From: a virus | Reading direction: 5' to 3' (one strand) | IMG/VR virus record: IMGVR_UViG_3300034022_000629 | Coordinates: 1 to 64,000 of that record | Length of the DNA: 64,000 nucleotides | Part shown: positions 6,341-58,650 of the stretch, one piece after another | Numbering within the stretch: position 1 is the first letter of the stretch | How the letters are laid out: the number at the start of each line of letters is the position of its first letter | The notes under the pieces: model-generated | Seen by the model: only the letters and a program-made list of their open reading frames with translations | Told to the model about the DNA's origin: nothing | Database searches by the model: none | Program-made: the position numbers and the translations under genes

Positions 6341-6355
6341 TATATAAATATCACA
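6341..6355 (-). promoter_or_regulatory. recurrent intergenic motif TATATAAATATCACA (minus-strand sense TGTGATATTTATATA), a candidate phage promoter
   Basis: Same or near-identical motif 5-30 nt upstream of the starts of minus-strand genes at 1754-1767, 6341-6355, 7949-7962, 13173-13189, 52055-52068 and 53415-53430. A split version lies at 9341-9367. Confidence 0.4.
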
Positions 6356-7944: not shown

Positions 7945-7974
7945 ATTAATATAAATATCACAATTTTAGTTCAA

Positions 7975-9373: not shown

Positions 9374-9799
9374 CTATGAATTTTCTTCAATATAATCGTG
9401 TTGTGGAGACCAAACTCCTTCAGAAGTTACTTTTGGATTCTCATTTCTATCAATCATAACCCATTCAGCTTTAACTAAACCCCAAGGTTTGAAATGTTCT
9501 AATACGTCCTCAAGTGAGAAACATTTACAACTGTAGATATCAAACTGAGCCATTGGTAATTCGTAATGATCCCAAATGTGAATTGATGCGTGTGATGTTG
9601 CCAAAGTAACCGTACCTGTTAAACCTTCATTACCTGGGTAATCAACGTAAACACTCGTAGGTCCACCTACAACTTCCATTTTAACTTTATGAACTAACTG
9701 GATAAACCATTCATTTAAATCACTAACTCTGTTCGGAGGATTAGTGAGCCAAACCTTCATCAAAAGGTGTTGGTGATAAGGAACAAATTCTTCTTGCAT
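9374..9799 (-). CDS. pyruvoyl-dependent S-adenosylmethionine decarboxylase-like proenzyme (SpeH/class 1 AdoMetDC family)
   Basis: ATSHASIHIWDH aligns with the ESHLTIHSFPE self-processing serine motif, and FDIYSCKCF with (I/V)D(V/I)YTCG; 141 aa. Confidence 0.5.
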   Translation of the reverse strand: MQEEFVPYHQHLLMKVWLTNPPNRVSDLNEWFIQLVHKVKMEVVGGPTSVYVDYPGNEGLTGTVTLATSHASIHIWDHYELPMAQFDIYSCKCFSLEDVLEHFKPWGLVKAEWVMIDRNENPKVTSEGVWSPQHDYIEENS

Positions 9800-10743: not shown

Positions 10744-11319
10744 TTAAATTTTATTTATTTTAAATAACTCTTCGGTTAAATCAATATATGGTTGTGTTTC
10801 GGGATTATAATAGCCAACCATTTTGTCTATTTTTTCCTTATTGTCGTATGTTGTAGTTTTATTATGTTGTTCAACTCCCCAAATTGGTTCTGGTAATTCT
10901 CTAACATTAAACATAACCACTCGTTCTGGTGTTGCGCAAACATAAAAAACATCTTTGTCAGGTGATATAATCATATCGTCCCATTTTTTCTTTTCAACTA
11001 AGAAAGTATCATAATCTTTCTTTCTTCCTTTAGTTTCAATTCCACATTTTTCTAAAATACTACGCAAATCGATAGGAGAATATTTGTTATGTATATTTAA
11101 ATCTATCAAATCAGGATACAATTTTTTCAATTCAAAATAAATACTTGTTTCATCCTGACAAATGTAAGTTAGATATCTTTCTCTTCTTTTACTTAAAAGT
11201 AGTGGTATACAATTAATAATTGTATCTAAACAATTTTTATGTTCTTGTTCTTTTTCTAATTGTTCCGCTATCCGTTTTTCAATTTCTTCTACTGACAACT
11301 CTTCAATATCTCTCGACAT
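10744..11319 (-). CDS. hypothetical protein
   Basis: 191-aa ORF. Confidence 0.4.
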   Translation of the reverse strand: MSRDIEELSVEEIEKRIAEQLEKEQEHKNCLDTIINCIPLLLSKRRERYLTYICQDETSIYFELKKLYPDLIDLNIHNKYSPIDLRSILEKCGIETKGRKKDYDTFLVEKKKWDDMIISPDKDVFYVCATPERVVMFNVRELPEPIWGVEQHNKTTTYDNKEKIDKMVGYYNPETQPYIDLTEELFKINKI

Positions 11320-11903
11320 AAATCTTCTGGTATTTTACTTCTTTCATAAGCGTTAGATCTACCTTGTGTTCCTGTTTTAGAACCTCTAGGTGCTGCAACG
11401 TGACAAGGTGAACCATTCTTACACATTGGTCTTGGAACCCATACATCACTATTAGTCCATATGTCGGTTGGTTTCATTCTTTCATCACCATACTGACAAT
11501 ATGTAACAGTGTTTCGTTTGAACTTATCCATAAATGGCATCTTACGAAGAACTCCTCTTGGGTTTTCAATGAACCAATATGTTGGATTGAAATGTTCAAT
11601 CACTTCGATAGTTTTCTTAACTAATTCAATACCAAGTCGTGCGGTATCTGTCTTAGGAATGTACGCACCCTTACCTCCAGTCCAATGGTGACCTAAAGCG
11701 GCAACACTGAATCCTGTACAAGGTGGTGATGCCCAAATTACATCAGGTTGAAATGGAACTTTGGTTACATCAAAGTCTAAGATACTAACGGCATAATGTA
11801 TTCCGTCAAATGGTGTTAGGTCGGATGAAAATACTTCCATACCTAACTCTTCGGCAATCTTTCCAACGGAACGACTACCCGCAAATAATTCTAATACTTT
11901 CAT
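11289..11903 (-). CDS. DNA (cytosine-5)-methyltransferase, compact
   Basis: - Motif I: FAGSRSVG.
- Motif IV: ASPPCTGFS, carrying the catalytic Cys.
- Motif VI: FIENPRG (ENV block). Confidence 0.7.
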   Translation of the reverse strand: MKVLELFAGSRSVGKIAEELGMEVFSSDLTPFDGIHYAVSILDFDVTKVPFQPDVIWASPPCTGFSVAALGHHWTGGKGAYIPKTDTARLGIELVKKTIEVIEHFNPTYWFIENPRGVLRKMPFMDKFKRNTVTYCQYGDERMKPTDIWTNSDVWVPRPMCKNGSPCHVAAPRGSKTGTQGRSNAYERSKIPEDLCREILKSCQ

Positions 11904-12190
11904 TAAACTAAATGCTTAAATTTATCAGCAACGTTATTGATATAATTTTCCTCATCTAAAGATAATAGATGTCTACATTTTTTTAAATGGTCAAGACTAT
12001 CCCAAAAAGATTCATCGTTAACATTTGGTCTACGAACACCGTAATTAGATGCTTTAATATCTTTTTGGTCTTCACTAATGAACCCACACTCAACTAAGTA
12101 ATCAATTAGTTCTTGTCTTTCTCTAGATGAACAAGCATCAACAAATTCACTTGGATTAACGTCGATGTCGTCTGGTGTAAAATCTGGCAT
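11903..12190 (-). CDS. hypothetical acidic protein
   Basis: 95-aa ORF. Confidence 0.35.
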   Translation of the reverse strand: MPDFTPDDIDVNPSEFVDACSSRERQELIDYLVECGFISEDQKDIKASNYGVRRPNVNDESFWDSLDHLKKCRHLLSLDEENYINNVADKFKHLV

Positions 12191-12247
12191 AATAATTTTA
12201 TTTAAATGTTTAAATAAAATATAAGAAAAAAAATTGGAAATAAAAAA

Positions 12248-12580
12248 TTATAGAGAAAAAGATTCTCCACATCCACAGGTGCGGGATGCATTAGGATTGG
12301 ACCAACTAAATCCTTTACCGTTTAAACCAGATGAGTATTGTAGCTCGGTACCATATAGATAAAGAACTGATTTCTTATCTACCACTAATTTAACTCCACC
12401 GCCCGCCTCGAACACGTCGTCCGATTCGTGTATGTTGTCATCAAAGTCCATTGTATATGAAAGACCTGAACATCCTCCACCCTTTACCCCAACACGAAGA
12501 TGGTGAGTGTCTGGATTTATACCATCACCCACCATAAGTTCTATCACGTGTTCTAATGCTAACTCACTTATTGTAATCAC
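12248..12580 (-). CDS. iscA: IscA/HesB-family Fe-S cluster assembly (A-type carrier) protein
   Basis: GGGCSGLSY and the C-terminal CGCGESF carry the three conserved Cys of A-type carriers; 110 aa. Confidence 0.7.
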   Translation of the reverse strand: MITISELALEHVIELMVGDGINPDTHHLRVGVKGGGCSGLSYTMDFDDNIHESDDVFEAGGGVKLVVDKKSVLYLYGTELQYSSGLNGKGFSWSNPNASRTCGCGESFSL

Positions 12581-12762
12581 TTTAAACCAGTCTTATTTAA
12601 TAAAGAATCGGTTGTTTTAATATCAACCTTTATTTCTTTTATCACTTGGGTTTCCTTTCGTAATTTTGCAAGTTCTCGTTGTTGAAAGAAACATATTAAT
12701 AGTAATGCGATTGCACTTCCCTTAGTTATGTTGTCTTGATTTTTCTTGAAGAATTCTATCAT
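12577..12762 (-). CDS. small membrane protein
   Basis: 61 aa with one TM helix; overlaps both neighbours by 4 nt. Confidence 0.3.
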   Translation of the reverse strand: MIEFFKKNQDNITKGSAIALLLICFFQQRELAKLRKETQVIKEIKVDIKTTDSLLNKTGLK

Positions 12763-12766
12763 AGTT

Positions 12767-13162
12767 TTAATTAATTAATATATCCATACCATTTTTCTTT
12801 CGGTAATCGTTTATCGCTTCTTTGATAGCATCTTCCGCTAATACCGAACAATGTATCTTAACTGGAGGTAATGATAGTTCCTCCACCAATTCCATATTAT
12901 CCATTTTAATTGCATCATCTATTGACATTCCTTTCAACCATTCGGTTGCTAAAGAGGATGCTGCGATTGCCGATCCACATCCGAAGGTTTTGAACTTAGC
13001 GTCGGTTATGATGTTATCGTTAACTTCAATTTGTAATCTCATTACATCACCACATTCTGGTGCACCCACTAATCCCGTACCTACATTAGATTTACTTTTA
13101 TCCAAAGTACCTACGTTTCGTGGGTTATTGAAATGATCTATTACCTTATCTCCGTATGCCAT
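12767..13162 (-). CDS. iscU: IscU/NifU-like Fe-S cluster scaffold
   Basis: The GAPECGDVMRLQI, TFGCGSAIAASS and LPPVKIHCSVLAEDAI motifs supply the three Cys plus His characteristic of IscU. Confidence 0.8.
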   Translation of the reverse strand: MAYGDKVIDHFNNPRNVGTLDKSKSNVGTGLVGAPECGDVMRLQIEVNDNIITDAKFKTFGCGSAIAASSLATEWLKGMSIDDAIKMDNMELVEELSLPPVKIHCSVLAEDAIKEAINDYRKKNGMDILIN

Positions 13163-13185
13163 AGTATTTGTTTATATGATAAATA

Positions 13186-13431
13186 TCAGTCAATCAGTTC
13201 ATCTGTTATAATGTTATGATCATTTAAGATTTCGTGTATCTTTTCATATACCAATTCCAAAGCATCATACTTGTCAATTTCTTTACCTTCCATTGACCAT
13301 TCTAAACCTTTTTTAGTGTTATGTACAATATCCCATAACGCCATCGCCATATCTAAAGATTTAATTGCTCTTTTATGTGCCATAACATCGTCAGGATCAC
13401 TTAAGTTGTACTCTATTGTCGCTTTCGCCAT
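13186..13431 (-). CDS. hypothetical protein
   Basis: 81-aa ORF. Confidence 0.4.
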   Translation of the reverse strand: MAKATIEYNLSDPDDVMAHKRAIKSLDMAMALWDIVHNTKKGLEWSMEGKEIDKYDALELVYEKIHEILNDHNIITDELID

Positions 13432-13553
13432 AAGTCACTGAGTTTTTTACCTGGTTTAATTATTCTACCGTTTTCATCCATCATAGGTGCTCGGTATATT
13501 TCAAATGCCATCCATAAACCTACTAAAACTAATAAAATTCCAAACTTCATCAT
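13413..13553 (-). CDS. unannotated 46-aa single-TM peptide (MMKFGILLVLVGLWMAFEIY...)
   Basis: Found by hand translation of an otherwise empty 120-nt gap. Hydrophobic N-terminus; overlaps the next start by 19 nt. Below the ORF-track size cutoff. Confidence 0.25.
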   Translation of the reverse strand: MMKFGILLVLVGLWMAFEIYRAPMMDENGRIIKPGKKLSDLWRKRQ

Positions 13554-13559
13554 ATTGAT

Positions 13560-13862
13560 TTATTTTAATGATTCAACATATTTTGATTTCCAAAATTGCC
13601 ACCATTTACGTTTGACAATTGGTTTACATTCTGAGAATGGATTATCTCCAAATGCTACCTTATTTAAATACTTGGAAGATATTACATTGAAAAATATTTC
13701 GTGGTACTTTTTATCTACCGTGGAAAAATCGGCAATAACTTCAACGTTTAATGTTACAGGACCATCTTCAGTATATACTATAAAATGTTCTTGTAATTTA
13801 ACTAAACTACTTGTTTGTAAATTTATATAATTTCCATTTCCAATGTGAAAATCGGTTCCCAT
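13560..13862 (-). CDS. hypothetical protein
   Basis: 100-aa ORF. Confidence 0.35.
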   Translation of the reverse strand: MGTDFHIGNGNYINLQTSSLVKLQEHFIVYTEDGPVTLNVEVIADFSTVDKKYHEIFFNVISSKYLNKVAFGDNPFSECKPIVKRKWWQFWKSKYVESLK

Positions 13863-13863
13863 A

Positions 13864-14187
13864 TTACTCTGTTTGTGTTGTTAATATTAGTTCAAATTCG
13901 TTAGCACCTTTTTTGTTTTGTTCTTTGAACATTTCAAGTGCAATCTCATAACGACTAACCTCAGTAAATCTAATAAATAATTCATCTCGTAAACTATCTC
14001 GTTCATTAATGATTTGTACCTTTTCAATATCACCACCAGGAATATAACCATTGTCTGTTTGACACTTAACTAATTCTTCTTTTGTTTTTCTCAACTCTTC
14101 TAATTTATTAAAATAGTTAACCAATAAACCTGTAAAAGATAATGTAGCAACTACCACATAAAATCTAAGCTGTGTTAAAATTTTCAT
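13864..14187 (-). CDS. hypothetical membrane-anchored coiled-coil protein
   Basis: N-terminal TM helix followed by coiled coil. Confidence 0.35.
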   Translation of the reverse strand: MKILTQLRFYVVVATLSFTGLLVNYFNKLEELRKTKEELVKCQTDNGYIPGGDIEKVQIINERDSLRDELFIRFTEVSRYEIALEMFKEQNKKGANEFELILTTQTE

Positions 14188-14486
14188 TTGTCTAATTTTT
14201 TAATGTCTGTTAATATTTTCTCCACCTCTTGTTCAGATAGATAACCAAGTACATCGTCTGTAATTGGTGTGTCGTAAGTTATCTGACCATCTTTACCAAA
14301 GACAGCTAATTCATATAACCCTTTAGATCCTCCATATGTATGTTCACCTTGAACAATACTAGCCCCGTAACCATTTGAAAATTGTACTATACATTGTTTT
14401 CCTATCCCCATTGGGTGTATTTGGAAATTCAACTCCTCGAACACTATCGTGTCTAAGTTGTTCGTTGGTCTTGTTTTTACGTTCAT
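14184..14486 (-). CDS. hypothetical protein
   Basis: 100-aa ORF. Confidence 0.35.
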   Translation of the reverse strand: MNVKTRPTNNLDTIVFEELNFQIHPMGIGKQCIVQFSNGYGASIVQGEHTYGGSKGLYELAVFGKDGQITYDTPITDDVLGYLSEQEVEKILTDIKKLDK

Positions 14487-14530
14487 CTTTTTGTTTTTTT
14501 ACAAATGATTGTATTAAATAATAATTCATA

Positions 14531-14699: not shown

Positions 14700-15668
14700 T
14701 TAATATACTATTTTTTCTTGAGATTTCAAAATATCATCAACAATTTGTATCCTTTGACCAATCCATCTCATTACATTTACTGTCATTGAGTTACCAATAA
14801 TACCTTTAACATTTGAATATGATGGTTTTTTACCGTCAATTTCAAAGTCAAGATAATCATCAGGGAACCCCTGAAGTCTAAGTAATTCTTTCTCGGTAAA
14901 TTCTCGGATACCTCCCTCATCAACCCAATAGTTTGATGTTGAATCCTTACCAAACCCATCGGTTAATGTTTGAGAATATGATTTAGTTATCGTACCTGCG
15001 ATTCTAATTTGTCCGAGAAGACTTTTGGTACGGTCATCCCTCTCTTTAAGAGTCTCTTTTTTAAATTTCTTAAAACATCCTTCGTCAAATAATATTGCCG
15101 CAGGGACTCTCCAGTCGGTTCCACGATATCCAACAATGTAGACTCTTTTGCGTCGTTGGGGTACTCCAAAATATTGGGAGTCGAAAACCCTATAAGCGAT
15201 TGACCGTTTGGTACCTTGAACAATACCTCCCCCTCTGTTGATGTTGTCCGGTCTAAAATCGACACCTGTGAAAGAGGAGATGATGTCACACAACCCTTCT
15301 TTGTGTTCTTTATCAAAAACACCGTCGACGTTTTCCCATACGTTGTACTTGGGAGATTTTGACTCAAGAATTCCTCCATATTTAATGGCGAGTTGAGCAC
15401 GTAAGTCATCCATTCCTTTTCTGAGTCCTGAATTTGACCAAGCTTGGCACGGTGTGCCTCCGACGAACACGTCGAAATCTGTTTTTTTGAATTTTTCATC
15501 GTCTAGTAAGTTTAACATATTTGTATAAAAAGGAACATCAGGGTAATGATGTTTAAGGACTTTCTGTGGGAAACTTGCAAAGTCACATAGACCCGCACAT
15601 TCCCAACCAAGTGGCTCCCAAGCGACAGTCGCCGCCTCCATACCACTACATACTGAAAAATACTTCAT
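14700..15668 (-). CDS. DNA (cytosine-5)-methyltransferase
   Basis: - Motif I: FSVCSGMEAA.
- Motif IV: GGTPCQAWSNSG.
- Motif VI: NVWENVDG (ENV).
- Length 322 aa. Confidence 0.75.
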   Translation of the reverse strand: MKYFSVCSGMEAATVAWEPLGWECAGLCDFASFPQKVLKHHYPDVPFYTNMLNLLDDEKFKKTDFDVFVGGTPCQAWSNSGLRKGMDDLRAQLAIKYGGILESKSPKYNVWENVDGVFDKEHKEGLCDIISSFTGVDFRPDNINRGGGIVQGTKRSIAYRVFDSQYFGVPQRRKRVYIVGYRGTDWRVPAAILFDEGCFKKFKKETLKERDDRTKSLLGQIRIAGTITKSYSQTLTDGFGKDSTSNYWVDEGGIREFTEKELLRLQGFPDDYLDFEIDGKKPSYSNVKGIIGNSMTVNVMRWIGQRIQIVDDILKSQEKIVY

Positions 15669-22952: not shown

Positions 22953-24308
22953 ATGAAGAAAAAAATATTACTTTTATCTGATGATTTAAGAATGACATCA
23001 GGTATTGCTACTATGTCCAAAGAAATCGTATTAGGTACCGTCCACAAATACGATTGGGTTCAGTTGGGTGCATCGATTAGTCACCCTGAAATTGGGAAGA
23101 TTGTTGATGTAAATGACGACATAAGAAAACGCACCGGAGTTGAAGATGCGAATTTAAAGATTATACCATACAATGGTTATGGGGATATCAATATGATTCG
23201 TAGATTGTTAGACGAAGAAAAACCAGATGCCATTCTTCATTTTACGGACCCACACTATTGGCAATGGTTATACGATAACGAACACGAGATAAGACAGCGT
23301 GTACCAATTTTATATTGGCACATTTGGGATGACTTACCAGATCCACAATACAATAGAGACTTCTATGAAAGTTGTGATTGGGTTGGTGGTATTTCAAAAC
23401 AAACATACGGTATTATTCATCGTGTTAGTAAAAGAACCGATAAGGTTACATTTAAACCTTTGGAAGATTGGCAGATAAGTTACGTTCCTCACGGTATTAA
23501 TCCAGATTTATTTAAACCGTTAGATACTATCAGTGAAGAAGTAACTAAATTTATTCACGGAGAAAAGAAATATGACTTTGTTCTATTTTACAACAGTAGA
23601 AACATTAGAAGGAAACAACCAAGTGACGTAATTTATTCATTTAAATTATTCTGTGATAGATTACCAAAAGAAAAGGCTGAAAAATGTTTATTGCTAATGC
23701 ACACATCTCCGGTTGATGAGAATGGTACAGACTTACCTGCAGTTATTAATGACCTTTGTCCTTATGATGTTAGATTCACGGGTATTAAATTAGAACAAGA
23801 TAAGCTAAATGAATTCTATAACATTGTTGATTGTACAATTAACATTGCAAACAATGAAGGATTTGGTTTAACGACGGCAGAATCTTTAATGTCGGGAACA
23901 CCAATCATTGTAAATGTTACTGGTGGGTTACAGGATCAATGTGGATTTGATTTTAGTGCCGATGATTATATTAGTGTCGGTACTTTACATAGTAAGGAAG
24001 AAAGAAGTCAAACAGCTCACGGTGAATGGGTTATTCCTGTTTGGCCATCGGCAATTAACTTAAATGGTTCAGTACCAACACCATACATTTTTGATGATAG
24101 GGTTAATGATATTGAAGTTGCTGATGCTATTATGAAAATGTATAAGTTTAGTAAAAAGAAGAGAAAAGAAAAAGGATTAAAAGGTAGAGAGTTTATGATT
24201 AACAATCTATCAAATAAAATAATGTGTGATAAACTGATTGAAGGTATTGATACCACAATGGAAAAATTCACACCAAGAAAAAGATTCGACACATATAAAG
24301 TAATATGA
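22953..24308 (+). CDS. GT-B glycosyltransferase (group 1 / GT4-like)
   Basis: NEGFGLTTAESLMSGTPII matches the GT4 E-x7-E motif. Confidence 0.6.
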   Translation: MKKKILLLSDDLRMTSGIATMSKEIVLGTVHKYDWVQLGASISHPEIGKIVDVNDDIRKRTGVEDANLKIIPYNGYGDINMIRRLLDEEKPDAILHFTDPHYWQWLYDNEHEIRQRVPILYWHIWDDLPDPQYNRDFYESCDWVGGISKQTYGIIHRVSKRTDKVTFKPLEDWQISYVPHGINPDLFKPLDTISEEVTKFIHGEKKYDFVLFYNSRNIRRKQPSDVIYSFKLFCDRLPKEKAEKCLLLMHTSPVDENGTDLPAVINDLCPYDVRFTGIKLEQDKLNEFYNIVDCTINIANNEGFGLTTAESLMSGTPIIVNVTGGLQDQCGFDFSADDYISVGTLHSKEERSQTAHGEWVIPVWPSAINLNGSVPTPYIFDDRVNDIEVADAIMKMYKFSKKKRKEKGLKGREFMINNLSNKIMCDKLIEGIDTTMEKFTPRKRFDTYKVI

Positions 24309-25561
24309 TTAAACCATTTTTATTATTTAGAGGACCAGTAAAAACAAGAAGCGGATATGGTGCACATTCAAGAGACTTACTTGAATCACTTTATAAGATG
24401 GACTTGTTTAATATTAAAATTGATAGTTGTTCTTGGGGAAGTACTCCATTAACCGCATTAGAAGAAGGGAATGAATTCCATAATTGGATTAATGAAAACA
24501 TCATTACCAACTTACCGGATCAACCAGAGATTTATGTACAAGTAACCGTACCAAATGAATTTCAAAGAGTTGGTAAATTTAATATAGGTGTGACCGCAGG
24601 TATTGAAACAACTGTGGCACCTAAAAATTGGGTGGATGGTTGTAATAGGATGGATCACATCATAACCACTTCAACATTTTCTAGAGACGTTTTATTACAA
24701 ACAGTTTATAATGAAACAGAAAATAATACTGGAAAATTAATTAAACAATTTAGAATTGAAAAACCCGTTTCAGTATTGTTTGAAGGTGTTGATACATCAA
24801 TATATAATAACAAATATAAAGGTATCGATGTCGATATTACGGAAGATTTTGCGTATCTTTTTGTTGGTCATTGGTTGAAAGGTGATACTGGTCAAGATCG
24901 TAAAGATGTTGGAATGTTGATTAGATGTTTCATTGAAGCATTTAAGGATGAAGAAGTAAAACCTGCGTTAGTTCTTAAAACGTCGTCAGCAACTTTCTCA
25001 GTTAGACAAAGAGAAGATTTTAGAAAGAAAATTGAGGATATTGTTAAGTTAAGTAAAACCGATACTCCTCCATCAATTTATCTTTTGTTTGGTGAATTAA
25101 CCAATGAGGAAATGAATGAGTTATATAATCATCCTAAAATAAAAGCAATGGTTTCAATAACAAAAGGTGAAGGATTTGGTAGACCGTTATTAGAATTTAC
25201 AATGACGGGTAAACCTGTGATAGCATCTAATTGGTCTGGACATAAAGACTTCTTACCTATGGAGAAAGCTATAATGGTTGGTGGTTCATTAACTGAAGTA
25301 CACGAAAGTGTGATAGATGATTTTATCATTAAGGGTTCCAAATGGTTCACAGCCAATTATAACGAGTTTACAGAAGTGATGAAAATTGTTATTAAAGATT
25401 ATGATAAGTTTTTGGAGAAGTCTGAATTGCTTAGAGAGTTTAACTCTGAAAACTTTACGTTGGATAATATGAAAAATAAGTTTGAATCTATTTTAAAACA
25501 AAATACAATTCAACCAAAAGAACATAAATTGGTTTTACCAAAACTCACAAAAGTTAACTAA
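24305..25561 (+). CDS. GT-B glycosyltransferase (group 1 / GT4-like)
   Basis: KGEGFGRPLLEFTMTGKPVIAS matches the E-x7-E motif. Confidence 0.6.
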   Translation: MIKPFLLFRGPVKTRSGYGAHSRDLLESLYKMDLFNIKIDSCSWGSTPLTALEEGNEFHNWINENIITNLPDQPEIYVQVTVPNEFQRVGKFNIGVTAGIETTVAPKNWVDGCNRMDHIITTSTFSRDVLLQTVYNETENNTGKLIKQFRIEKPVSVLFEGVDTSIYNNKYKGIDVDITEDFAYLFVGHWLKGDTGQDRKDVGMLIRCFIEAFKDEEVKPALVLKTSSATFSVRQREDFRKKIEDIVKLSKTDTPPSIYLLFGELTNEEMNELYNHPKIKAMVSITKGEGFGRPLLEFTMTGKPVIASNWSGHKDFLPMEKAIMVGGSLTEVHESVIDDFIIKGSKWFTANYNEFTEVMKIVIKDYDKFLEKSELLREFNSENFTLDNMKNKFESILKQNTIQPKEHKLVLPKLTKVN

Positions 25562-25812
25562 TGTCATTTAAATTTCTCACAGGTAACCAAGATATGTTTA
25601 CACATTTGGAACCCACCCAACTATTAACATTAAGACAACCAACAATGATTAACAATGTTGAATTTTGTTTTCAGTTTGGTGATAATGAACCCGTAGTATT
25701 TGCAACAGGACCTAATGAATGTCAAATTCGATTAAGTCCACAAACAGATGCTAATATTATGTTCACAGATAATCATAGACAGTTTAAATTATTTGCAAGA
25801 GAAAGACAATGA
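25561..25812 (+). CDS. hypothetical protein
   Basis: 83 aa; start overlaps the preceding stop (ATGA-type coupling at 25561). Confidence 0.35.
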   Translation: MSFKFLTGNQDMFTHLEPTQLLTLRQPTMINNVEFCFQFGDNEPVVFATGPNECQIRLSPQTDANIMFTDNHRQFKLFARERQ

Positions 25813-26018
25813 GAAAGTTTACCTTCTTTGTTGGTATTAGTAAACCAACACTAACCGCAACTTGGTCACCTGAATTCAATGATAATTTATTTACTAACCA
25901 CGGTATTGATGCTGAGGCGGAACTAACAAGAATAATGTCAGCAGAAATTGCAAGAACAATAGATGAAGATATAATAAGAACATTAACAAGAGAAATAAAC
26001 GGAGGATTAAGAGCCTAA
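25809..26018 (+). CDS. hypothetical protein
   Basis: 69 aa; 4-nt overlap with the upstream gene. Confidence 0.35.
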   Translation: MRKFTFFVGISKPTLTATWSPEFNDNLFTNHGIDAEAELTRIMSAEIARTIDEDIIRTLTREINGGLRA

Positions 26019-26019
26019 T

Positions 26020-26865
26020 ATGAAAATTTTAGTAACAGGAGGAGCAGGATTTATAGGAACTAATCTAATTAAGAGATTATTATTTGAAGGGCATAATGTA
26101 GAATCTATTGACAACTACGATAGTGGGTTAGTGTCCAATCACGTAGATGGGTGTAACTATCATACGGGAGATATAGAATCTATTGGTTTGATGGATAAAG
26201 ACTTTGATATGATATATCATTTAGCGGGACTAAGTAGAATCCAACCATCGTTTAAAAATCCAACAGAAACTTTCAGAGTTAATACTATAGGTACCGAGAG
26301 TGTTTGTTCATTTGCAAAGAAAATAAATGCTAAGGTTGTATATGCGGGTTCGTCGTCAAGATGGCACGACCCATTTCAATCACCATACGCTTGTTACAAA
26401 CATATGGGTGAAGAGATTTGTAAAATGTACAGAAAGGTTTATGATATAGACATTGAAATTGTTAGATTTTATAATGTTTACGGACCTAACGAAGTTGTTG
26501 ACGGTGATTGGGCCGCAGTTATTGGTATATGGAGAAGACAAGTTATTAATAAGGAACCAATTACTATTGTTGGTGACGGTAATCAAAGACGAGATTTCAC
26601 ACACGTTATTGATATAGTTGATGGTTTATATAGGGTTGGTACGAGTAACGAAAAACACGAAGACGCTTGGGAGTTAGGTACTGGAACCAATTATTCAATA
26701 CTTGAAGTCTATGAAATGTTTAAGGAAAAATTTGGGTGTGATAAGTTACACATTGAGAATCAGAAGGGTAACTATCGTATAACTTTGCGTGAAAATAACG
26801 ATGCAATCGACCGTTTAGGTTGGTCACCAGAAAATAGATTAAAAAATTATGTAGATAGTTTATGA
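26020..26865 (+). CDS. NAD-dependent sugar epimerase/dehydratase (short SDR, UDP-hexose 4-epimerase-like)
   Basis: N-terminal Rossmann motif ILVTGGAGFIG and a catalytic YACYK (YxxxK). Confidence 0.7.
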   Translation: MKILVTGGAGFIGTNLIKRLLFEGHNVESIDNYDSGLVSNHVDGCNYHTGDIESIGLMDKDFDMIYHLAGLSRIQPSFKNPTETFRVNTIGTESVCSFAKKINAKVVYAGSSSRWHDPFQSPYACYKHMGEEICKMYRKVYDIDIEIVRFYNVYGPNEVVDGDWAAVIGIWRRQVINKEPITIVGDGNQRRDFTHVIDIVDGLYRVGTSNEKHEDAWELGTGTNYSILEVYEMFKEKFGCDKLHIENQKGNYRITLRENNDAIDRLGWSPENRLKNYVDSL

Positions 26866-27485
26866 AAATAAGTTTTGCTATAACAGTATCCAAAGAGATA
26901 AACGAAATTAAACATTTAGTTCCATTCTTATTAGAACATAAACGACCTCAAGATGAGATAGTTGTTTTGTTTGATGAAAAAAATGGAGACAAGGAAGTGT
27001 TAGATTTTTTATTGCCTTTTAATATCAAACCTAACGTACAAACCTGGAGAGGTTTTGATTTTGATTATAACTTTGCCGATTGGAAGAATAAATTAAATTC
27101 TTATTGTGTTGGGGATTATATATTTCAATTAGATGCTGATGAGATGGTAAGTGAGTATATGATAAAGAACGTTACTGAAATCATTTCTATGAATAAGGAC
27201 GTTGAGTTATTTTTTCTACCAAGAATAAACATAGTAAGTGGAATAACTCAGGATCATATTAATAGATGGGGATGGATAGTTGATGACTTAGGTAGGATTA
27301 ACTTTCCAGACTTTCAAGGTAGAATATATAAGAAAGGTTTGGAATGGCAGGGAAAAGTTCACGAAAGAATTGTAGGAACGAAGTCCTATTCATTACTACC
27401 ATCAGATGAAGAGTCGTATTGTATTAAACATTACAAAGACATATCTAAACAAGAACAACAAAATAACTTATACAGTAAAATATGA
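26862..27485 (+). CDS. putative GT-A-fold glycosyltransferase
   Basis: FQLDADEMV is DxD-like; gene context. Confidence 0.35.
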   Translation: MKISFAITVSKEINEIKHLVPFLLEHKRPQDEIVVLFDEKNGDKEVLDFLLPFNIKPNVQTWRGFDFDYNFADWKNKLNSYCVGDYIFQLDADEMVSEYMIKNVTEIISMNKDVELFFLPRINIVSGITQDHINRWGWIVDDLGRINFPDFQGRIYKKGLEWQGKVHERIVGTKSYSLLPSDEESYCIKHYKDISKQEQQNNLYSKI

Positions 27486-28030
27486 AACTAGAAGAAATAT
27501 ACAATCAGAGATGTTCAACTCCATCGGATATTAATGAACACTTACCAACATTAAAGAAATACGCCGAGGAGTGTGACCACATTACCGAAATGGGAGTTAG
27601 ATGGGTGGTATCAACTTACGCCTTTATGATGGGGGGACCTAAAAAATTAATATCAATTGACATTAACCCCGTTGAAAAACACGGAATTAAAGTTGAAGAC
27701 TTAGTTGAATTAGCCAAAGAAAAAAATGTTGATTTTGAATTTCAATTAGGTGACACTACTGTAATTGAAATTGATGAAACTGATTTTCTTTTTATTGATA
27801 CTTGGCACGTTTACCAACAATTAAAAACAGAATTAACACTACACGGTAATAAAGCTAGAAAATATATTGGATTCCACGACACCACAATATTTGAAACTAG
27901 AGGGGAAAACGGTCATCCTGGTTTATGGCCCGCAATCGAGGAGTTCTTATCTGAAAACCCTCATTGGTCAGTCCACGAAAGGTTTACAAATAACAACGGA
28001 TTAACTATATTAAAGAGAAATGAAGATTGA
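27482..28030 (+). CDS. putative class I SAM-dependent methyltransferase (TylF/MycF-like)
   Basis: SDINEHLPTLKKYA and ITEMGV resemble macrocin-O-methyltransferase-like proteins. Confidence 0.4.
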   Translation: MKLEEIYNQRCSTPSDINEHLPTLKKYAEECDHITEMGVRWVVSTYAFMMGGPKKLISIDINPVEKHGIKVEDLVELAKEKNVDFEFQLGDTTVIEIDETDFLFIDTWHVYQQLKTELTLHGNKARKYIGFHDTTIFETRGENGHPGLWPAIEEFLSENPHWSVHERFTNNNGLTILKRNED

Positions 28031-28598
28031 ATTTATAATACCGACTTATAATAGGGTACATCACTTAATGACTATTATTAGTTCAATATTTGCTCAAACT
28101 AATCCAAATTGGTATATACACGTTGTTGCCGATTGTCCACCCGAAGGAACATTAGATAAGATAATGGACTTTTACAAGGATAGTGATAAAATAAAATTCA
28201 CAATTTTAGAAAAAAGGTATAACGATTGGGGACATACCCCAAGAAATTACGGATTAAAAAACTCTAAAGAAGAGTGGGTTATTATGACGGGAGAGGATAA
28301 CTACTACGTTCCTACTTTTGTTGGGGAATTTTTAAAAGTTGCAACTCAGAACACCATATTTGTTTATTGTAATATGGTTCATAATTGGGTGAATAAAGAC
28401 TACATTGCAATTAAATCTCAACCAATATTAGGTCACATTGATATTGGTAATTTTATGGTTAAAAAAAGATTAGCTAAAGATATGGAATTGGATGTGACAG
28501 AAGCTAACGCCGATGGTTTGTTTGTTGAGGAATACTTGAGACAATATCCTTTCGGTAAACAAAAGTTTATAGAAAAATTTTTATATGTCCACAACTAA
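28020..28598 (+). CDS. GT2-family glycosyltransferase
   Basis: The N-terminal EFIIPTYNRVHHL motif is typical of GT2. Confidence 0.6.
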   Translation: MKIEFIIPTYNRVHHLMTIISSIFAQTNPNWYIHVVADCPPEGTLDKIMDFYKDSDKIKFTILEKRYNDWGHTPRNYGLKNSKEEWVIMTGEDNYYVPTFVGEFLKVATQNTIFVYCNMVHNWVNKDYIAIKSQPILGHIDIGNFMVKKRLAKDMELDVTEANADGLFVEEYLRQYPFGKQKFIEKFLYVHN

Positions 28599-29349
28599 AA
28601 AGAAATGTGCGGTTTTTACTATTGTAAAAAATGAAAATTACTTCTTACCAATATGGTTAAAACATTATAAGAGGTACTTTGATAATTCAGACATTTATAT
28701 CTTAGACCATCAATCGAATGATGGGTCAACTGAAGGATTAGATGTTAATGTTGACTTAGTTATTAACGAAATGGCATTTGATCATCAATGGTTAGTTAAT
28801 ACCGTAGAAAACTTCCAAGTTAAATTACTTGAGAACTATGAATCGGTTTTATTTGTGGAAATAGATGAGATAATATATACTCTTGACAAACCATTAAATG
28901 AAGTTATAATTGATTTTATTAACGATGATAATTTACTTGTTCAATCTTGTACTAGTAGAGATTTATTACAAATTTTAGAAACAGAAAAGTCTTTAGAAGA
29001 GGGTGATTTAATTATTGAAAATAGAAACTATTGGTTCGAGGATGCAATTTACCATAAAACATTATTATCTAAAGTACCTTTAAAATGGGTGGTTGGATTT
29101 CATTACATAACTAACCATACCACAAACCACACACTTAACCTTAGAATGTGTCACTTACATCGTTTTGATTTTGAATTAATGTGTGAAAGAAATATTCATC
29201 GTATAAATAATACCCAAATTGAGGGTGGTGCAAATGGTTTTCAAAATAAAACAACAGATAAAAATAAATTAATGGATTTCTTTATTATGGAACATAATAA
29301 AAAGGAACTCATTCCTGAAGAACATAAAATAGCTCTAAAACATATATGA
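28585..29349 (+). CDS. putative nucleotide-sugar-dependent transferase (GT-A-like)
   Basis: The N-terminal AVFTIVKNENYFLPIW resembles GT-A-fold DUF-type transferases. Confidence 0.35.
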   Translation: MSTTKKKCAVFTIVKNENYFLPIWLKHYKRYFDNSDIYILDHQSNDGSTEGLDVNVDLVINEMAFDHQWLVNTVENFQVKLLENYESVLFVEIDEIIYTLDKPLNEVIIDFINDDNLLVQSCTSRDLLQILETEKSLEEGDLIIENRNYWFEDAIYHKTLLSKVPLKWVVGFHYITNHTTNHTLNLRMCHLHRFDFELMCERNIHRINNTQIEGGANGFQNKTTDKNKLMDFFIMEHNKKELIPEEHKIALKHI

Positions 29350-29972
29350 ATTTAATTGATAAAAATATCTACAATGAATTTACTTTATTGCCCGAAGATA
29401 CATCTGGTTGGAATGGGAATAGTGAAGTTTTTGTTAAATTAATTACAGAAATTAAACCTAAAACAATTATTGAAGTTGGTTCTTGGAAAGGACAGTCAGC
29501 AATTAATATGGGTAAAACAACTAAGGAATTGGGATTAGGTACCACAATACATTGTGTGGACACTTGGTTAGGTGCAATTGAATTTTGGTCAAGTTTAAAG
29601 GAAACAGAAGAACGTAATTTATTATTACGTCACGGATACCCTCAGATTTATTATCAATTTTTAAGTAATGTAATTCACAATGGTTTACAAGATACTATTT
29701 TACCATTTCCAAATACATCGGAAAATGGATTTAGATATTTTAGAGATATAAAACTGACCGCGGATTTAATTTACATCGACGCCTCTCACGAGGAGGAAGA
29801 TGTTTATAAAGATGTAAATAATTATTTTACCTTATTAAACGCGGGAGGTATAATATTTGGGGATGATTATGTTAGTTGGATTGATGTAAAGAAATCAATT
29901 GACAGATTCGTTAAAGAACAAAATTTAACTTTAGAAGTATTGGAAAATAATTTTTGGGTTATAAAAAAATAA
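29346..29972 (+). CDS. class I SAM-dependent methyltransferase (Methyltransf_24-like)
   Basis: IIEVGSWKGQSAINMG is a GxG SAM-binding motif; YIDASHEEEDV is typical of the family. Confidence 0.5.
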   Translation: MNLIDKNIYNEFTLLPEDTSGWNGNSEVFVKLITEIKPKTIIEVGSWKGQSAINMGKTTKELGLGTTIHCVDTWLGAIEFWSSLKETEERNLLLRHGYPQIYYQFLSNVIHNGLQDTILPFPNTSENGFRYFRDIKLTADLIYIDASHEEEDVYKDVNNYFTLLNAGGIIFGDDYVSWIDVKKSIDRFVKEQNLTLEVLENNFWVIKK

Positions 29973-29976
29973 GATT

Positions 29977-31071
29977 ATGGTATATGATTACTTAATAGTG
30001 GGTTCTGGATTCTTCGGTAGTATCTGTGCACACGAACTTAACAAAACAGGTAAGAAGGTTTTAGTGATTGATTCAAGAAATCATATAGGTGGTAACTGTC
30101 ACACAGAAAATAAAGATGGTATCAATGTTCACACATATGGTCCTCACGTATTTCACACATCAAATGAAGAAGTTTGGAAATGGATTAATCAATTTGTTGA
30201 ATTCAATAACTTCAGACTGAATCCTGTTGCCAATTACAAAGATGAATTGTATTCGTTACCTTTTAATATGTGGACATTTAATAAGTTATGGAATGTTACC
30301 ACACCTGAACAAGCTAAACTTGTTATTGAGAATCAATCTAAAGAGATTGGTGAACCAACTAACTTAGAGGAACAAGCAATTAAATTGGTTGGTAAGGATG
30401 TGTATGAGAAATTGATTAAAGGATATACCACCAAACAATGGAAGAAAGACCCTAAAGAATTACCTAAAGAGATTATAACTAGATTACCTGTTAGATTTAC
30501 ATTTGATGGTAACTACTTCAATGACAAGTATCAAGGTATTCCAATTGGTGGTTACACACAGATATTTGAAAAGTTATTAGATGGTATTGAAGTTAGGTTG
30601 GGTGTTGATTATTTCAAAGATGAATTACCCGAACATACTAAAGTAATATACACTGGTCCTATTGATAGGTTCTTTGATTACAAGTATGGTGAATTAGAAT
30701 ATAAAACAACAAGGTTCGAACATAAACACTTTGACACACCAAACTATCAAGGTACAGCAGTAATGAACTACACTGAAGAAGAGATAGTACATACTAGAAC
30801 TATTGAACATAAACATTTTGAAAGTTCAGACACACCAACAACTTGGGTTTCGTGGGAATATCCTCACACATATAAGGCAGGTGAGACCGAACCATATTAT
30901 CCTGTGAATGATAAATCAAATACTGAGATATATTCAAAGTATAAAGAAGAGGCAAATAAATTAAGTGATAGTGTTTTATTTGGTGGTAGGTTAGCCGAGT
31001 ACAAATATTATGATATGCATCAAGTAATTGCGTCAGCGTTAGATTTTATAAATAAAGAAATTAATAAATGA
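29977..31071 (+). CDS. glf: UDP-galactopyranose mutase
   Basis: N-terminal FAD-binding DYLIVGSGFFGS, followed by NCHT and GPHVFHT; 364 aa, typical of Glf. Confidence 0.8.
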   Translation: MVYDYLIVGSGFFGSICAHELNKTGKKVLVIDSRNHIGGNCHTENKDGINVHTYGPHVFHTSNEEVWKWINQFVEFNNFRLNPVANYKDELYSLPFNMWTFNKLWNVTTPEQAKLVIENQSKEIGEPTNLEEQAIKLVGKDVYEKLIKGYTTKQWKKDPKELPKEIITRLPVRFTFDGNYFNDKYQGIPIGGYTQIFEKLLDGIEVRLGVDYFKDELPEHTKVIYTGPIDRFFDYKYGELEYKTTRFEHKHFDTPNYQGTAVMNYTEEEIVHTRTIEHKHFESSDTPTTWVSWEYPHTYKAGETEPYYPVNDKSNTEIYSKYKEEANKLSDSVLFGGRLAEYKYYDMHQVIASALDFINKEINK

Positions 31072-32177
31072 ATATAACATTTGTATTGGCGGTATTAAAT
31101 AAATTAGATTTAACCAAGGATTGTTATAATCATTTACGTAAGTTATATCCAGAGGTACCGTTAGTTATTAGTAGTGGCGGATCTTTAGATGGTACAAAGG
31201 AATGGTTAGAATCTTTAGATGATGAGTATATGTCATATTTTCACGACGATGAAAGATTGACATTTTCCGATACCTACAATGCTGGAATTAAATTAGTTGA
31301 TACTGAGAAATTAGTGTTGATACATAACGATATGGTTATTGGTGAACAGTTCTTAGAGAACTTAGATAGATTATTAGATGAGAATCCAAATACTTTATTA
31401 TCGTACACCACAATTGAACCTCCAATCTTTAAGGGACACAAAAGACCTGGTAAAGTATTAATGGATATGGGGTCATCGTTTCATAATTTTGACCATACTT
31501 TATTTGAACGATACGTTCAAGACAATAAAGATAAATGTAATATCTACGATGGTGCGGTTTTCTTTATGAGTGGGACCAAGAAAATGTTTGATGATATTGG
31601 CGGGTTTGATGGTTTTAGTTTTGTCCCTTGTTTCTGTGAGGATGATGATTTCTTAATTCGTGCGAAACTAAAAGGCTACGAACTTAAAACTACGGACTGT
31701 GCAATCACCTATCATTTTGTTTCGCAGACATCTAGATTTAGTGACGAGATGAAGACCGATAGGTTTAAAATTGAAGTTTCGTCAAATAGAAACTTTATTA
31801 GGAAGTGGGGTATTCCAATATCATCGTTTAATGAATTAAGATATTGGGAAGATAAGATTTTCAAATATAATACCTTTTCAATTGGTTTGACAACTAGAGA
31901 TAAATCGAAATTAGTACAATTAGAACCTTACTTTGATAAAATCGATTTAGGGGTGATTCCTGAAGATTATATAGAGAATGAACAAAAGAATACACGCTAC
32001 GATTTAAGGTCGAAATTTACCCTTACTGACACCGTTGACGTGATGGTTTATGAAACTGCACCATTCACAGATGAAGACATTTATACTTTGAATAGATTAA
32101 GGTTGTCATTACCTCATTATGAACCTGGACAATACAATATAGGTAATATGTTAATAGAAATAAAAAAGGGACTATAA
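31068..32177 (+). CDS. GT2-family glycosyltransferase
   Basis: The N-terminal FVLAVLNKLDL and the FCEDDDF (DxD-like) motif fit GT2 architecture. Confidence 0.5.
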   Translation: MNITFVLAVLNKLDLTKDCYNHLRKLYPEVPLVISSGGSLDGTKEWLESLDDEYMSYFHDDERLTFSDTYNAGIKLVDTEKLVLIHNDMVIGEQFLENLDRLLDENPNTLLSYTTIEPPIFKGHKRPGKVLMDMGSSFHNFDHTLFERYVQDNKDKCNIYDGAVFFMSGTKKMFDDIGGFDGFSFVPCFCEDDDFLIRAKLKGYELKTTDCAITYHFVSQTSRFSDEMKTDRFKIEVSSNRNFIRKWGIPISSFNELRYWEDKIFKYNTFSIGLTTRDKSKLVQLEPYFDKIDLGVIPEDYIENEQKNTRYDLRSKFTLTDTVDVMVYETAPFTDEDIYTLNRLRLSLPHYEPGQYNIGNMLIEIKKGL

Positions 32178-52038: not shown

Positions 52039-52065
52039 ATTATTTTCTTATTTCTATATAAATAT

Positions 52066-53115: not shown

Positions 53116-53179
53116 AAAAATTGTAAAATCAATGGATGGTTACACAATTTTACAATTAATTACTTTGAAATAGCGACTA

Positions 53180-58649: not shown

Positions 58650-58650
58650 A

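Follow-up and report, generated by a model that had tools for sequence, protein, structure and literature searches.

The window analysed here, a stretch of 64,000 nucleotides from IMG/VR virus record IMGVR_UViG_3300034022_000629, carries on its minus strand an iscU gene (positions 12767–13162) for a 131-aa Fe-S cluster scaffold of the Bacteroidota type and, downstream of it, a gene for a 110-aa A-type Fe-S carrier of the HesB/IscA/ErpA superfamily (12248–12580, minus strand, GTG start). The slot between the two is occupied by a 61-aa ORF on the same strand (orf61, 12577–12762), whose stop overlaps the GTG start of the carrier gene (GTGA). Gene prediction yielded orf61 in four independent contigs, and it gave no match in Pfam, NCBIfam or PHROG searches; no more than 8 of the 80 related viral loci contain it.

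Sequence features of the IscU and carrier proteins

The initial annotation had placed an IscA-type carrier and an IscU scaffold at 12248–13162, which the two ORFs match exactly, and had proposed HMM searches as a check. For the upstream ORF, searches with Pfam and NCBIfam models bore the IscU identity out. The whole protein scored 212.8 bits with the IscU model TIGR01999 (cutoff 192.4) and matched the Pfam NifU_N domain (PF01592) with E = 6.7e-50, whereas the alternatives remained below their cutoffs (NifU_clost, 162.5 versus 187.9 bits; NifU_proper, 119.6 versus 273.3; SufU, 63.3 versus 92.5). The top matches in a PDB sequence search were IscU of Haemophilus influenzae (E = 8e-57) and of Escherichia coli (E = 2e-54), with which the window protein aligns from end to end. 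Alignment to structures 2l4x and 1q48 placed the cluster ligands at C37, D39, C62, H104 and C105, equivalent to C37, D39, C63, H105 and C106 of E. coli IscU, and all five were invariant in 85/85 viral and 80/80 Bacteroidota copies. The LPPVK sequence that is read by the HscA-type chaperone, likewise shared with the E. coli and H. influenzae proteins, lies at residues 98–102 and was found unchanged in all 165 copies checked. The residues through which E. coli IscU contacts IscS (Y3, G38, V40, K59, G64 and K103 in the 3lvl interface) are presumably kept as well, Y11F being a difference.

The downstream protein passed the cutoff of the general A-type model TIGR00049 (108.2 bits, cutoff 58.8), matched Pfam Fe-S_biosyn (PF01521) with E = 1.9e-15 and found HI1723, Aq_1857 and E. 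coli IscA in the PDB. Its ligand cysteines, C37 and the C102-G-C104 pair, form the Cys-X(n)-Cys-Gly-Cys triad also seen in IscA, SufA and ErpA; C37 is retained in 72 of 73 viral copies and C102-G-C104 in all 73. The protein had been described as an IscA-type carrier, and of this description the A-type part stands but the IscA part is too specific, as the scores fell short of both IscA models (TIGR02011, 89.1 versus 150.6 bits; NF007049, 86.9 versus 181). It was also under the equivalog cutoffs for SufA (TIGR01997, 86 versus 136.2) and ErpA (NF010147, 99.9 versus 117). ErpA is nevertheless its top-scoring equivalog, as it is for the carriers of Bacteroidota operons, which likewise stay below that cutoff, and the subtype therefore leans towards ErpA. 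A-type carriers are specifically required to mature [4Fe-4S] proteins, radical-SAM enzymes included, as known for IscA/ErpA in E. coli and Isa1/Isa2 in yeast.

The claim that both proteins keep their complete Cys/His ligand sets thus holds, and with ligands and motifs intact, IscU and the carrier look like working Fe-S assembly proteins. Both are under purifying selection, with dN/dS values of 0.08 among viral IscU copies and 0.19 among viral carrier copies. All viral IscUs have in common a deletion of one or two residues in the loop after position 49; this deletion apart, neither IscU nor the carrier showed fixed phage-specific residue changes that would be a sign of altered function.

Conservation of the gene pair among viruses

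A close IscU is encoded on more than 589 IMG/VR viral contigs, and the best 80 loci were used for all locus counts. The carrier gene lies downstream of iscU on the same strand in 70 of these 80 and immediately adjoins it in 29. In 36 of the 80, iscU is followed by a gene for a 102-aa ferredoxin, mostly between iscU and the carrier gene, in the slot that orf61 takes in the window. The ferredoxin of these sister lineages is of the 7Fe type (FdxA-like), unlike the [2Fe-2S] Fdx of the E. coli ISC system, and was not seen within the 64 kb of the window's own lineage. Such a protein is what an Fe-S/radical-SAM module that requires electrons would need, and no description of a 7Fe-type ferredoxin between a phage iscU and carrier gene was found in the literature searched.

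The two proteins match phrog_8429 and phrog_17776, the first of which is listed in PHROGs as 'NifU-like Fe-S cluster assembly protein' and as an auxiliary metabolic gene. The pair has the attributes of such genes, being host-derived, flanked by phage genes, recurrent in viruses, under purifying selection and ameliorated in composition.

Bacteroidota origin

The closest cellular IscUs come from Sphingobacteriaceae, Adhaeribacter, Mucilaginibacter, Hymenobacter and Sediminibacterium and are 79–86% identical to the window copy, and some viral IscUs are up to 92.6% identical to that of a Sediminibacterium MAG. In a neighbour-joining (NJ) tree built on dereplicated sequences, the 55 unique viral IscUs all fall into one clade, flanked by two Bacteroidota clades. 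From this phylogeny, the predicted host range is Bacteroidota, within Chitinophagaceae/Sphingobacteriales.

The cellular genes are arranged in the order iscS-iscU-carrier in 78 of 80 Bacteroidota loci. Comparison with the operons of Mucilaginibacter litoreus and Hymenobacter daecheongensis showed that the phage shares with them the order of iscU and carrier and the APECGDV loop of IscU. The phage version differs in having no iscS, in an IscU that, in the window copy, lacks the C-terminal tail ending in His, and in a base composition that has adjusted to the 32% GC of the phage. The viral carrier is far more diverged than IscU, at 53–61% identity to bacterial carriers, and we therefore base the co-acquisition of carrier and IscU on gene order and not on a tree.

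Phage context and an upstream motif

Many other genes of the window have PHROG matches, among them a tail-fibre protein gene (42428–46525; Peptidase_S74), and near-identical IMG/VR viral contigs exist, including independent contigs 100% identical to the window over 12–20 kb. The iscU-carrier block also contains genes for thymidylate synthase and DNA methyltransferases and an AdoMet decarboxylase-like gene. GC3 is ∼0.30 in both iscU and the carrier gene and 0.24–0.32 in other phage genes, a match that points to long residence in the phage. When positions 11000–14500 were searched against 50,697 phage records with megablast, no match was obtained, nor did tblastn of the 464-aa product of a neighbouring gene find one in phages, and a cultured relative was not found. 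The clade appears to be a large one, made up of uncultured, AT-rich freshwater phages, the freshwater habitat of the source being deduced from the IMG sample series.

The sequence GATATTTATC lies at positions 13178–13187 on the minus strand, 15 nt upstream of the iscU ATG. The form GATATTTAT[A/C] occurs six times in the window, each time on the minus strand and 5–18 nt upstream of the ATG of a gene; the overall count is not significant by itself (3.6 expected), and what stands out is the consistent strand and position. The full 16-nt upstream motif has one exact copy in the window, and its count of two when up to two mismatches are allowed is not above chance, so that the 10-nt core alone recurs. 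Among the 80 viral loci, 44 have ATATTTAT no more than 45 nt upstream of iscU, including loci in which the upstream genes differ. GATATTTATC probably acts as a promoter or regulatory element of the phage and places the cassette under separate control. We considered a T4 late promoter and rejected it, as the coding strand reads TATTTATA, the reverse complement of TATAAATA, and the orientation is therefore wrong. A copy of GATATTTAT[A/C] is also found ahead of the block that holds a gene for a 346-aa radical-SAM protein (see below); none was seen upstream of or within a six-gene radical-SAM array in the available sequence.

Missing ISC components

The classical ISC system of E. coli and H. influenzae comprises IscS, IscU, IscA, HscB, HscA and Fdx. 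Only two of these six components are found in the phage. No IscS gene was detected in the window, in its 6-kb extension or within 10 kb on either side of iscU in the 80 viral loci. A scan of IMG/VR with a 12-sequence profile yielded no Bacteroidota-type IscS; it returned only nine IscS-like genes, all at most 53% identical and none on a contig of the IscU list. A single-sequence scan for IscS, based on lineage-specific peptide patterns, likewise gave no match in IMG/VR. The Pfam families of HscA, HscB and the ISC ferredoxin were absent from the predicted genes of the window and its extension, and the phage also differs from the E. coli system in having no IscR. Without an IscS of its own, the phage module must depend on that of the host, and with two of six components it supplements the ISC system of the host. 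The suggestion in the initial annotation that the phage provisions its own Fe-S maturation hence goes too far.

Radical-SAM proteins as candidate clients

Three radical-SAM proteins had been claimed for the window, and Pfam searches upheld all three; the phage total is at least seven, and all of these have a CxxxCxxC motif as well as a Cys cluster near the N terminus. The first (48416–49456, minus strand, 346 aa) matched PF04055 with E = 2e-9, carries CNYKCPSC at residue 116 and is encoded in a block running into the tail-fibre gene. It lies outside family NF033640 (54.8 bits, cutoff 170). The second (61838–63100, minus strand, 420 aa) is a twitch-domain radical-SAM protein with 323 bits against the same cutoff, in which Pfam recognised SPASM at residues 17–80 and Radical_SAM at residues 119–278, with CNFKCRMC at residue 124. 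Its gene is the last of a tandem array of six paralogs. The third (63100–64000, minus strand) is the 3′ part of a paralog cut by the end of the window. Two contigs match window positions 51838–64000 with 100% identity, extend past this end and supplied the full gene, of 411 aa, together with four further paralogs. The paralogs of 522, 418, 450, 351 and 411 aa each exceed the NF033640 cutoff, and the six score 221–323 bits; the twitch domain of each is an auxiliary-cluster domain. The label 'glycan enzymes' given to these proteins is putative, with neighbouring glycosyltransferase genes as its sole basis; by family, the six paralogs are NF033640 twitch-domain radical-SAM proteins.

The 346-aa protein is a candidate client for [4Fe-4S] clusters, and the 420-aa protein is one that would need two clusters. 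Linkage of such genes to the pair is loose. In the window, the radical-SAM genes are 35–50 kb from iscU and the carrier gene, with a plus-strand gene block between, and a radical-SAM gene lies within 10 kb of IscU in only 6 of the 80 related loci. Homologues of the 346-aa protein occur on eight IMG/VR contigs that also carry IscU. For the 420-aa protein, tblastn against phages found only 20–24% identity, in Vibrio KVP40-like and Ralstonia jumbo phages, and an IMG/VR scan gave matches of at most 44% identity with no contig in common with the IscU list, which makes this protein unusable for a co-occurrence test. Radical-SAM genes are common in large phages generally. The earlier idea that the pair serves the radical-SAM enzymes is therefore sustained as far as a phage-borne, conserved and selected pair and at least seven potential users are concerned, but the link between the two is one of co-occurrence only, at a distance of 35–50 kb.

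Discussion

The account we favour, with somewhat better than even confidence, is that IscU and the carrier were captured together from a Bacteroidota operon and boost Fe-S assembly capacity downstream of host IscS during infection. An ancestor of the phage clade would have taken the iscU-carrier part of an iscS-iscU-carrier operon and not kept the desulfurase. Phage IscU would dock on host IscS, receive sulfur and assemble [2Fe-2S] clusters, presumably using the host reductant and the host chaperone that recognises LPPVK, and the phage carrier would receive clusters and pass [4Fe-4S] to apo-proteins. The net result would be extra scaffold and carrier capacity at a time when host expression fails and the phage makes many cluster-hungry proteins. 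The use of host IscS and the direction of cluster flow are what we infer from this arrangement, as is the role of phage radical-SAM proteins as main clients; a supply of clusters to these proteins is a plausible hypothesis.

The pair may instead feed the Fe-S enzymes of the host, those of respiration, the TCA cycle, isoprenoid and nucleotide metabolism and DNA repair, either once transcription in the host has ceased or when sunlit, oxic lake water imposes oxidative or iron stress, so that phage radical-SAM proteins would not be the selective reason for its presence. We consider such general support of host metabolism a possible though not a likely account. It would explain why the pair is unlinked to radical-SAM genes in most relatives and why it lies within a block for nucleotide and DNA metabolism, and it agrees with the presence of iscU and erpA in the small, podophage-type genomes of HMO-2011-type phages (PMC9038755) and with the view of Nishimura et al. 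that host and viral proteins are probably both served (PMC5332604). However, at least seven phage proteins that need about two clusters each are an obvious new demand, and on eight related contigs IscU occurs together with the gene for the 346-aa radical-SAM protein. The host-support and phage-client readings are compatible with each other.

A stronger version of the phage-client reading would make IscU, the 7Fe ferredoxin where present, and the carrier a private line of supply, specific to the phage, that has evolved jointly with the diverged twitch-domain radical-SAM family. Phage IscU would tap host IscS, the carrier would preferentially load the catalytic and auxiliary [4Fe-4S] sites of the phage radical-SAM proteins, and in sister lineages the ferredoxin would give electrons for cluster coupling, SAM cleavage or both. 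We regard this as unlikely.

It is very improbable that the pair acts by redirecting sulfur traffic, with the extra IscU competing with TusA-type acceptors for IscS, so that sulfur is diverted from tRNA thiolation and other pathways and translation or frameshifting is altered in favour of the phage. An IscU kept without IscS does have the configuration of a competitor, and there is a precedent in lambda and E. coli (PMC3296357, PMC11302665), where competition between IscU and TusA for IscS alters tRNA-Lys thiolation, gpG/gpGT frameshifting and infection dynamics (PMC3296357). However, the ISC pathway shields the host against lambda, the opposite of a benefit to the phage, the precedent is from E. 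coli and not from Bacteroidota, and a pure competitor needs neither full ligands and LPPVK nor a co-conserved carrier under strong purifying selection. Finally, contamination with bacterial DNA, chimeric assembly or decaying passenger genes, which might be suspected from the 79–86% identity to bacterial proteins and from IscU-bearing 'phage' records that are evidently bacterial (contigs of Acinetobacter phage MD-2021a; short Salmonella and Staphylococcus records), we regard as refuted by an IscU protein that recurs unchanged, among the same phage neighbours, on 27 contigs of independent samples, contigs identical to the window over many kilobases, relatives on several hundred viral contigs, a GC3 that is phage-like and unlike that of Bacteroidota homologues, a viral clade with a common loop deletion, and the low dN/dS of both genes.

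Phage capture of part of an ISC system has parallels. Marine T4-like genomes encode an A-type carrier and/or IscU together with up to 12 radical-SAM genes, and it was already proposed that these Fe-S genes serve viral radical-SAM and host proteins (Nishimura et al. 2017, PMC5332604). The present phage resembles them in having these components without a full ISC system, alongside multiple radical-SAM genes. The marine viral IscUs, however, group with gammaproteobacterial homologues (six of six; PMC5332604), whereas the present clade nests in Bacteroidota and so was acquired independently of the marine ones; the present pair further differs in keeping the gene order of the donor operon as a conserved cassette. 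Phage C48C1 (OQ984149, Kyanoviridae), which has a complete genome, encodes a 'NifU-like' IscU 72% identical to the window copy. This IscU falls outside the present viral clade, the 8 kb around its gene yielded no A-type carrier, and it looks like a separate acquisition. Fe-S genes go unmentioned in a 2026 paper on freshwater jumbophages, and the literature searched yielded no experimental test of the role of Fe-S assembly genes in aquatic phages.

Fe-S assembly genes belong to the auxiliary metabolic genes that recur in aquatic phages, and the present case confirms an established pattern; what is new is a well-documented further example that derives from Bacteroidota, the phenomenon itself having been described before. 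The IscU phylogeny also allows the hosts of a large group of uncultured lake phages to be predicted. Since the donor operon is identifiable, the desulfurase has been dropped, a ferredoxin has been added in sister lineages and the genome encodes at least seven two-cluster radical-SAM proteins, the clade offers a clean test case in which a generic booster and a dedicated supply line can be told apart directly with recombinant proteins. If the private supply line were true, it would be a virus-encoded pathway for cofactor maturation with client specificity, and not a generic booster.

Identification of the Fe-S assembly genes

ORF calling showed that the region 12248–13162 is filled by three minus-strand ORFs running in the same direction. 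The iscU gene (12767–13162, −) codes for a 131-aa protein that matches Pfam NifU_N (E = 6.7e-50) and scores 212.8 bits with TIGR01999, exceeding the curated cutoff of 192.4, while the NifU and SufU models of NCBIfam score under theirs. As judged from end-to-end alignment with H. influenzae and E. coli IscU, with C37, D39, C62, H104 and C105 at the ligand positions and LPPVK (98–102) at that of the chaperone motif, this protein is IscU. The 110-aa product of the ORF at 12248–12580 (−, GTG start) is, by the same kind of evidence, an A-type carrier (PF01521, E = 1.9e-15; TIGR00049, 108.2 bits versus a cutoff of 58.8), with the cysteine triad C37...C102-G-C104. The HMM searches that the initial annotation had called for returned both families above the TIGR01999 and TIGR00049 cutoffs; its IscU scaffold and its complete sets of cluster ligands are borne out. 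Its term 'IscA-type', however, says more than the evidence permits, since the carrier scores under the ErpA, IscA and SufA equivalog cutoffs of NCBIfam, with ErpA the highest of these.

The intervening orf61 (12577–12762, −; 61 aa), whose stop overlaps the carrier start codon, had no family match in Pfam, NCBIfam or PHROG searches. It resembles the N-terminal part of 99–102-aa proteins that fill the iscU–carrier gap elsewhere (regions compared: L073 10411–10909 and L065 3470–3977, both numbered loci with IscU relatives), with 54% identity to the L073 protein. An additional 62-aa PspC-domain protein is found in the gap of L073 and L074, and the slot appears to be an insertion hotspot for small genes.

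A scan of IMG/VR found a close IscU encoded on >589 viral contigs, some of 200–335 kb. Among the best 80 of these loci, the carrier lies downstream of iscU on the same strand in 70, and in several of the remaining 10 the region is cut off by the contig end; the gap is <60 nt in 29 loci and 250–500 nt in 24. The five ligands and LPPVK are retained without change in 85/85 viral copies of IscU, and the carrier triad is kept in 72/73. With Nei–Gojobori dN/dS values among viral copies of 0.08 for IscU and 0.19 for the carrier, we conclude from sequence comparison that these are maintained, functional genes.

A probable truncated Bacteroidota operon

In a GTDB scan with one genome per species, the nearest cellular IscUs occurred exclusively in Bacteroidota-type records (including Sphingobacteriaceae, Adhaeribacter, Mucilaginibacter, Hymenobacter, Pontibacter, Sediminibacterium and Chitinophagaceae) and were 79–86% identical to the window copy; for some viral copies, identity to a Sediminibacterium MAG is as high as 92.6%. 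Of the 80 bacterial loci analysed, 78 have an IscS (cysteine desulfurase) gene directly upstream of iscU, checked with NCBIfam in two genomes, and 79 an A-type carrier downstream; the donor arrangement is therefore iscS-iscU-carrier. The phage pair corresponds to the last two genes in unchanged order, which suggests that the cassette represents the donor operon in truncated form.

With E. coli and H. influenzae as the root, neighbor-joining placed the 55 unique viral IscUs in a single clade that lies between two Bacteroidota clades, each with 36 sequences; phage C48C1 (Kyanoviridae) has an IscU that falls elsewhere, outside the viral clade. A loop deletion of 1–2 residues is common to viral IscUs, and comparison with the bacterial sequences revealed no fixed amino-acid replacement. 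The viral carriers split into two clades, both separate from that of the bacterial copies, to which they are only 51–70% identical; that the carrier was captured together with IscU is suggested by gene order and is not shown by the tree. Only two 'bacterial' IscU loci lack an adjoining IscS. One of them, L136 (CAIRSV010000294.1, a 23-kb 'uncultured Bacteroidetes bacterium' MAG contig), has its carrier 3 kb downstream of iscU; the contig may be a mis-binned mobile or viral one, even though its IscU falls with bacterial sequences.

No IscS was found in the 64-kb window or within ±10 kb of iscU in the best 80 viral loci (0/80), and a profile scan of IMG/VR gave only nine IscS-like genes (≤53% identical), none on IscU-list contigs. 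Precomputed Pfam annotations, available for nearly all of the window and for the 6 kb that follow, contained no HscA/HscB, ferredoxin or IscR. The earlier proposal that the phage provisions its own Fe-S maturation is therefore overstated: the pair is a two-component add-on that would have to rely on host desulfurase, reductant and chaperones, a dependence that fits the kept LPPVK and the near-host sequence identity.

In 36 of the best 80 IMG/VR loci, the gene immediately after iscU codes for a 102-aa ferredoxin and usually separates iscU from the carrier (L009 10425–10733; also L011–L013, L024, L035–L038, L042 and others). The ferredoxin has the pattern CxxCx4Cx3CP...CxxCxxCx3CP, matches Fer4 families in Pfam and, among single-domain PDB entries, is most similar to 7Fe ferredoxins. 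This protein is present neither in the window, where orf61 takes the slot, nor in any of the 80 Bacteroidota iscS-iscU-carrier loci, and was therefore added on the phage side. Since Fe-S assembly and radical-SAM activation both require an electron donor, the variant strengthens the view of the cassette as a functional Fe-S module.

Candidate radical-SAM clients

Pfam confirmed all three radical-SAM calls of the initial annotation (48416–49456, 61838–63100 and 63100–63999). Two contigs, L171 and L172, match window 51838–64000 at 100% identity and run on past the window end, which reveals the two terminal genes as members of a six-paralog tandem array with products of 522, 418, 450, 351, 411 and 420 aa (window 61838–64000, −, and onward in L171 141–7963). 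All six exceed the NCBIfam cutoff for NF033640, 'twitch domain-containing radical SAM protein' (221–323 bits versus 170), and are mutually 21–30% identical. Each has CxxxCxxC and an N-terminal Cys cluster, and a twitch/SPASM-like Cys domain precedes the radical-SAM core; twitch domains hold a single auxiliary Fe-S centre (PMC11002830). Together with the 346-aa protein (48416–49456), the phage encodes at least seven radical-SAM proteins, each of which probably requires about two [4Fe-4S] clusters. Carbamoyltransferase, glycosyltransferase and APS-kinase genes border the array, and the designation 'glycan enzymes' is a guess from these neighbours.

Further enzymes using iron or other cofactors are encoded at 47380–47883 (−; 2OG-Fe(II) oxygenase-like, adjoining the 346-aa radical-SAM gene), 32697–33305 (−; Asp/Arg-hydroxylase-like) and 35919–37436 (−; tryptophan-halogenase-like flavoenzyme), and phage iron demand may extend past Fe-S clusters. 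SAM-related genes surround the Fe-S pair (9374–9799, 11289–11903 and 14700–15668, all −), comprising an AdoMet-decarboxylase-like protein and two DNA methyltransferases, one of C5 type; the related contig L163 has an additional N6/N4 methyltransferase.

Physical linkage between pair and clients is loose. In the window they lie 35–50 kb apart with a plus-strand block between, and in only 6 of the best 80 loci does a radical-SAM gene of any kind lie within 10 kb of IscU. Eight IMG/VR contigs of the IscU top-80 list also carry a homologue of the 346-aa protein, at 6–7 kb from IscU in three. The window has six copies of the sequence GATATTTAT[A/C], all on the minus strand and 5–18 nt upstream of a gene ATG (1756–1765, 6343–6352, 7950–7959, 13178–13187, 52057–52066 and 53417–53426). 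The genes that follow are iscU, those starting at 1742, 6325, 7944 and 53401, and the gene at 52038, the first of a block that includes the 346-aa radical-SAM gene and extends as far as the tail fibre. One-mismatch variants fall inside genes. The core ATATTTAT is found upstream of iscU in 44 of the best 80 viral loci, including loci with a different upstream gene; in the available sequence of the six-gene array, neither form was observed. The motif is probably a phage promoter or regulatory element, and its positions hint at shared control of iscU and the 346-aa radical-SAM block. A T4 late promoter was rejected, as the coding-strand motif is the reverse complement of the consensus TATAAATA.

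Role of the pair in infection

We favor, with moderate confidence, a role in which phage IscU and carrier would raise scaffold and carrier capacity downstream of, and fed by, host IscS, the phage's own radical-SAM enzymes being major recipients of the clusters. The main alternative, that the same biochemistry mainly serves host Fe-S enzymes, is compatible with phage clients and seems to us rather unlikely. Far less probable, and modelled on the case of lambda in E. coli (PMC3296357), is an IscU that competes for IscS and diverts sulfur from tRNA thiolation; that the ligands are all conserved, and the carrier along with IscU, speaks against a purely competitive protein. Contamination or decaying passenger genes can be dismissed, given the phage neighbours, identical copies on independent contigs, phage-like GC3, retained ligands and low dN/dS.

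The window encodes a 1365-aa tail-fibre protein, thymidylate synthase, several DNA methyltransferases and a peptidase. Identical IscU protein is encoded by 27 contigs, four contigs from different samples share the gene neighbourhood around iscU, and further contigs are 100% identical to the window across 12–20 kb. GC3 of iscU and carrier (~0.30) matches other phage genes (0.24–0.32) and not the Bacteroidota homologues (0.36–0.76). Searches of phage records with window piece 11000–14500, the 464-aa neighbour and the 420-aa radical-SAM protein found no close cultured phage.

Secondary BLAST matches revealed an internal direct repeat of ~344 bp (~85% identity; 43190–43531 and 43820–44161) in the tail-fibre gene (42428–46525, −). 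A glycan-related island (22953–32177, +) encodes two GT1-like glycosyltransferases, an NAD-dependent epimerase/dehydratase, two GT2 enzymes, a methyltransferase and a UDP-galactopyranose mutase-like (GLF) protein, and a 69-aa ORF within it has an odd Pfam Gp23 match. Many of the IscU/carrier matches among GenBank phage records appear to be bacterial sequence filed as phage (H2/H3, H18/H19 and H24/H25, contigs of Acinetobacter phage MD-2021a; short Salmonella, Staphylococcus and Listeria 'phage' entries), examples being contigs with both iscU-iscA and erpA, and SufU-type matches; counts of 'phages with IscU' from that collection would be inflated.

Photic-zone viromes had earlier yielded viral genes for Fe-S assembly (sufA, iscU), iscU and erpA are present in HMO-2011-type phages (PMC9038755), and PHROGs labels the IscU family an auxiliary metabolic gene. 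Complete marine viral genomes carry A-type carrier and/or IscU genes, one T4-like genome having a carrier and 12 radical-SAM genes, and the viral proteins were proposed to serve host and viral Fe-S proteins (Nishimura et al. 2017, PMC5332604). The marine viral IscUs of that study group with gammaproteobacterial homologues, whereas the present clade is of Bacteroidota origin and its setting apparently freshwater. The pair is thus a further example of a known phenomenon; new are this origin and apparent setting, the cassette as a truncated donor operon, as gene order suggests, the ferredoxin variant and the six-paralog twitch radical-SAM array.
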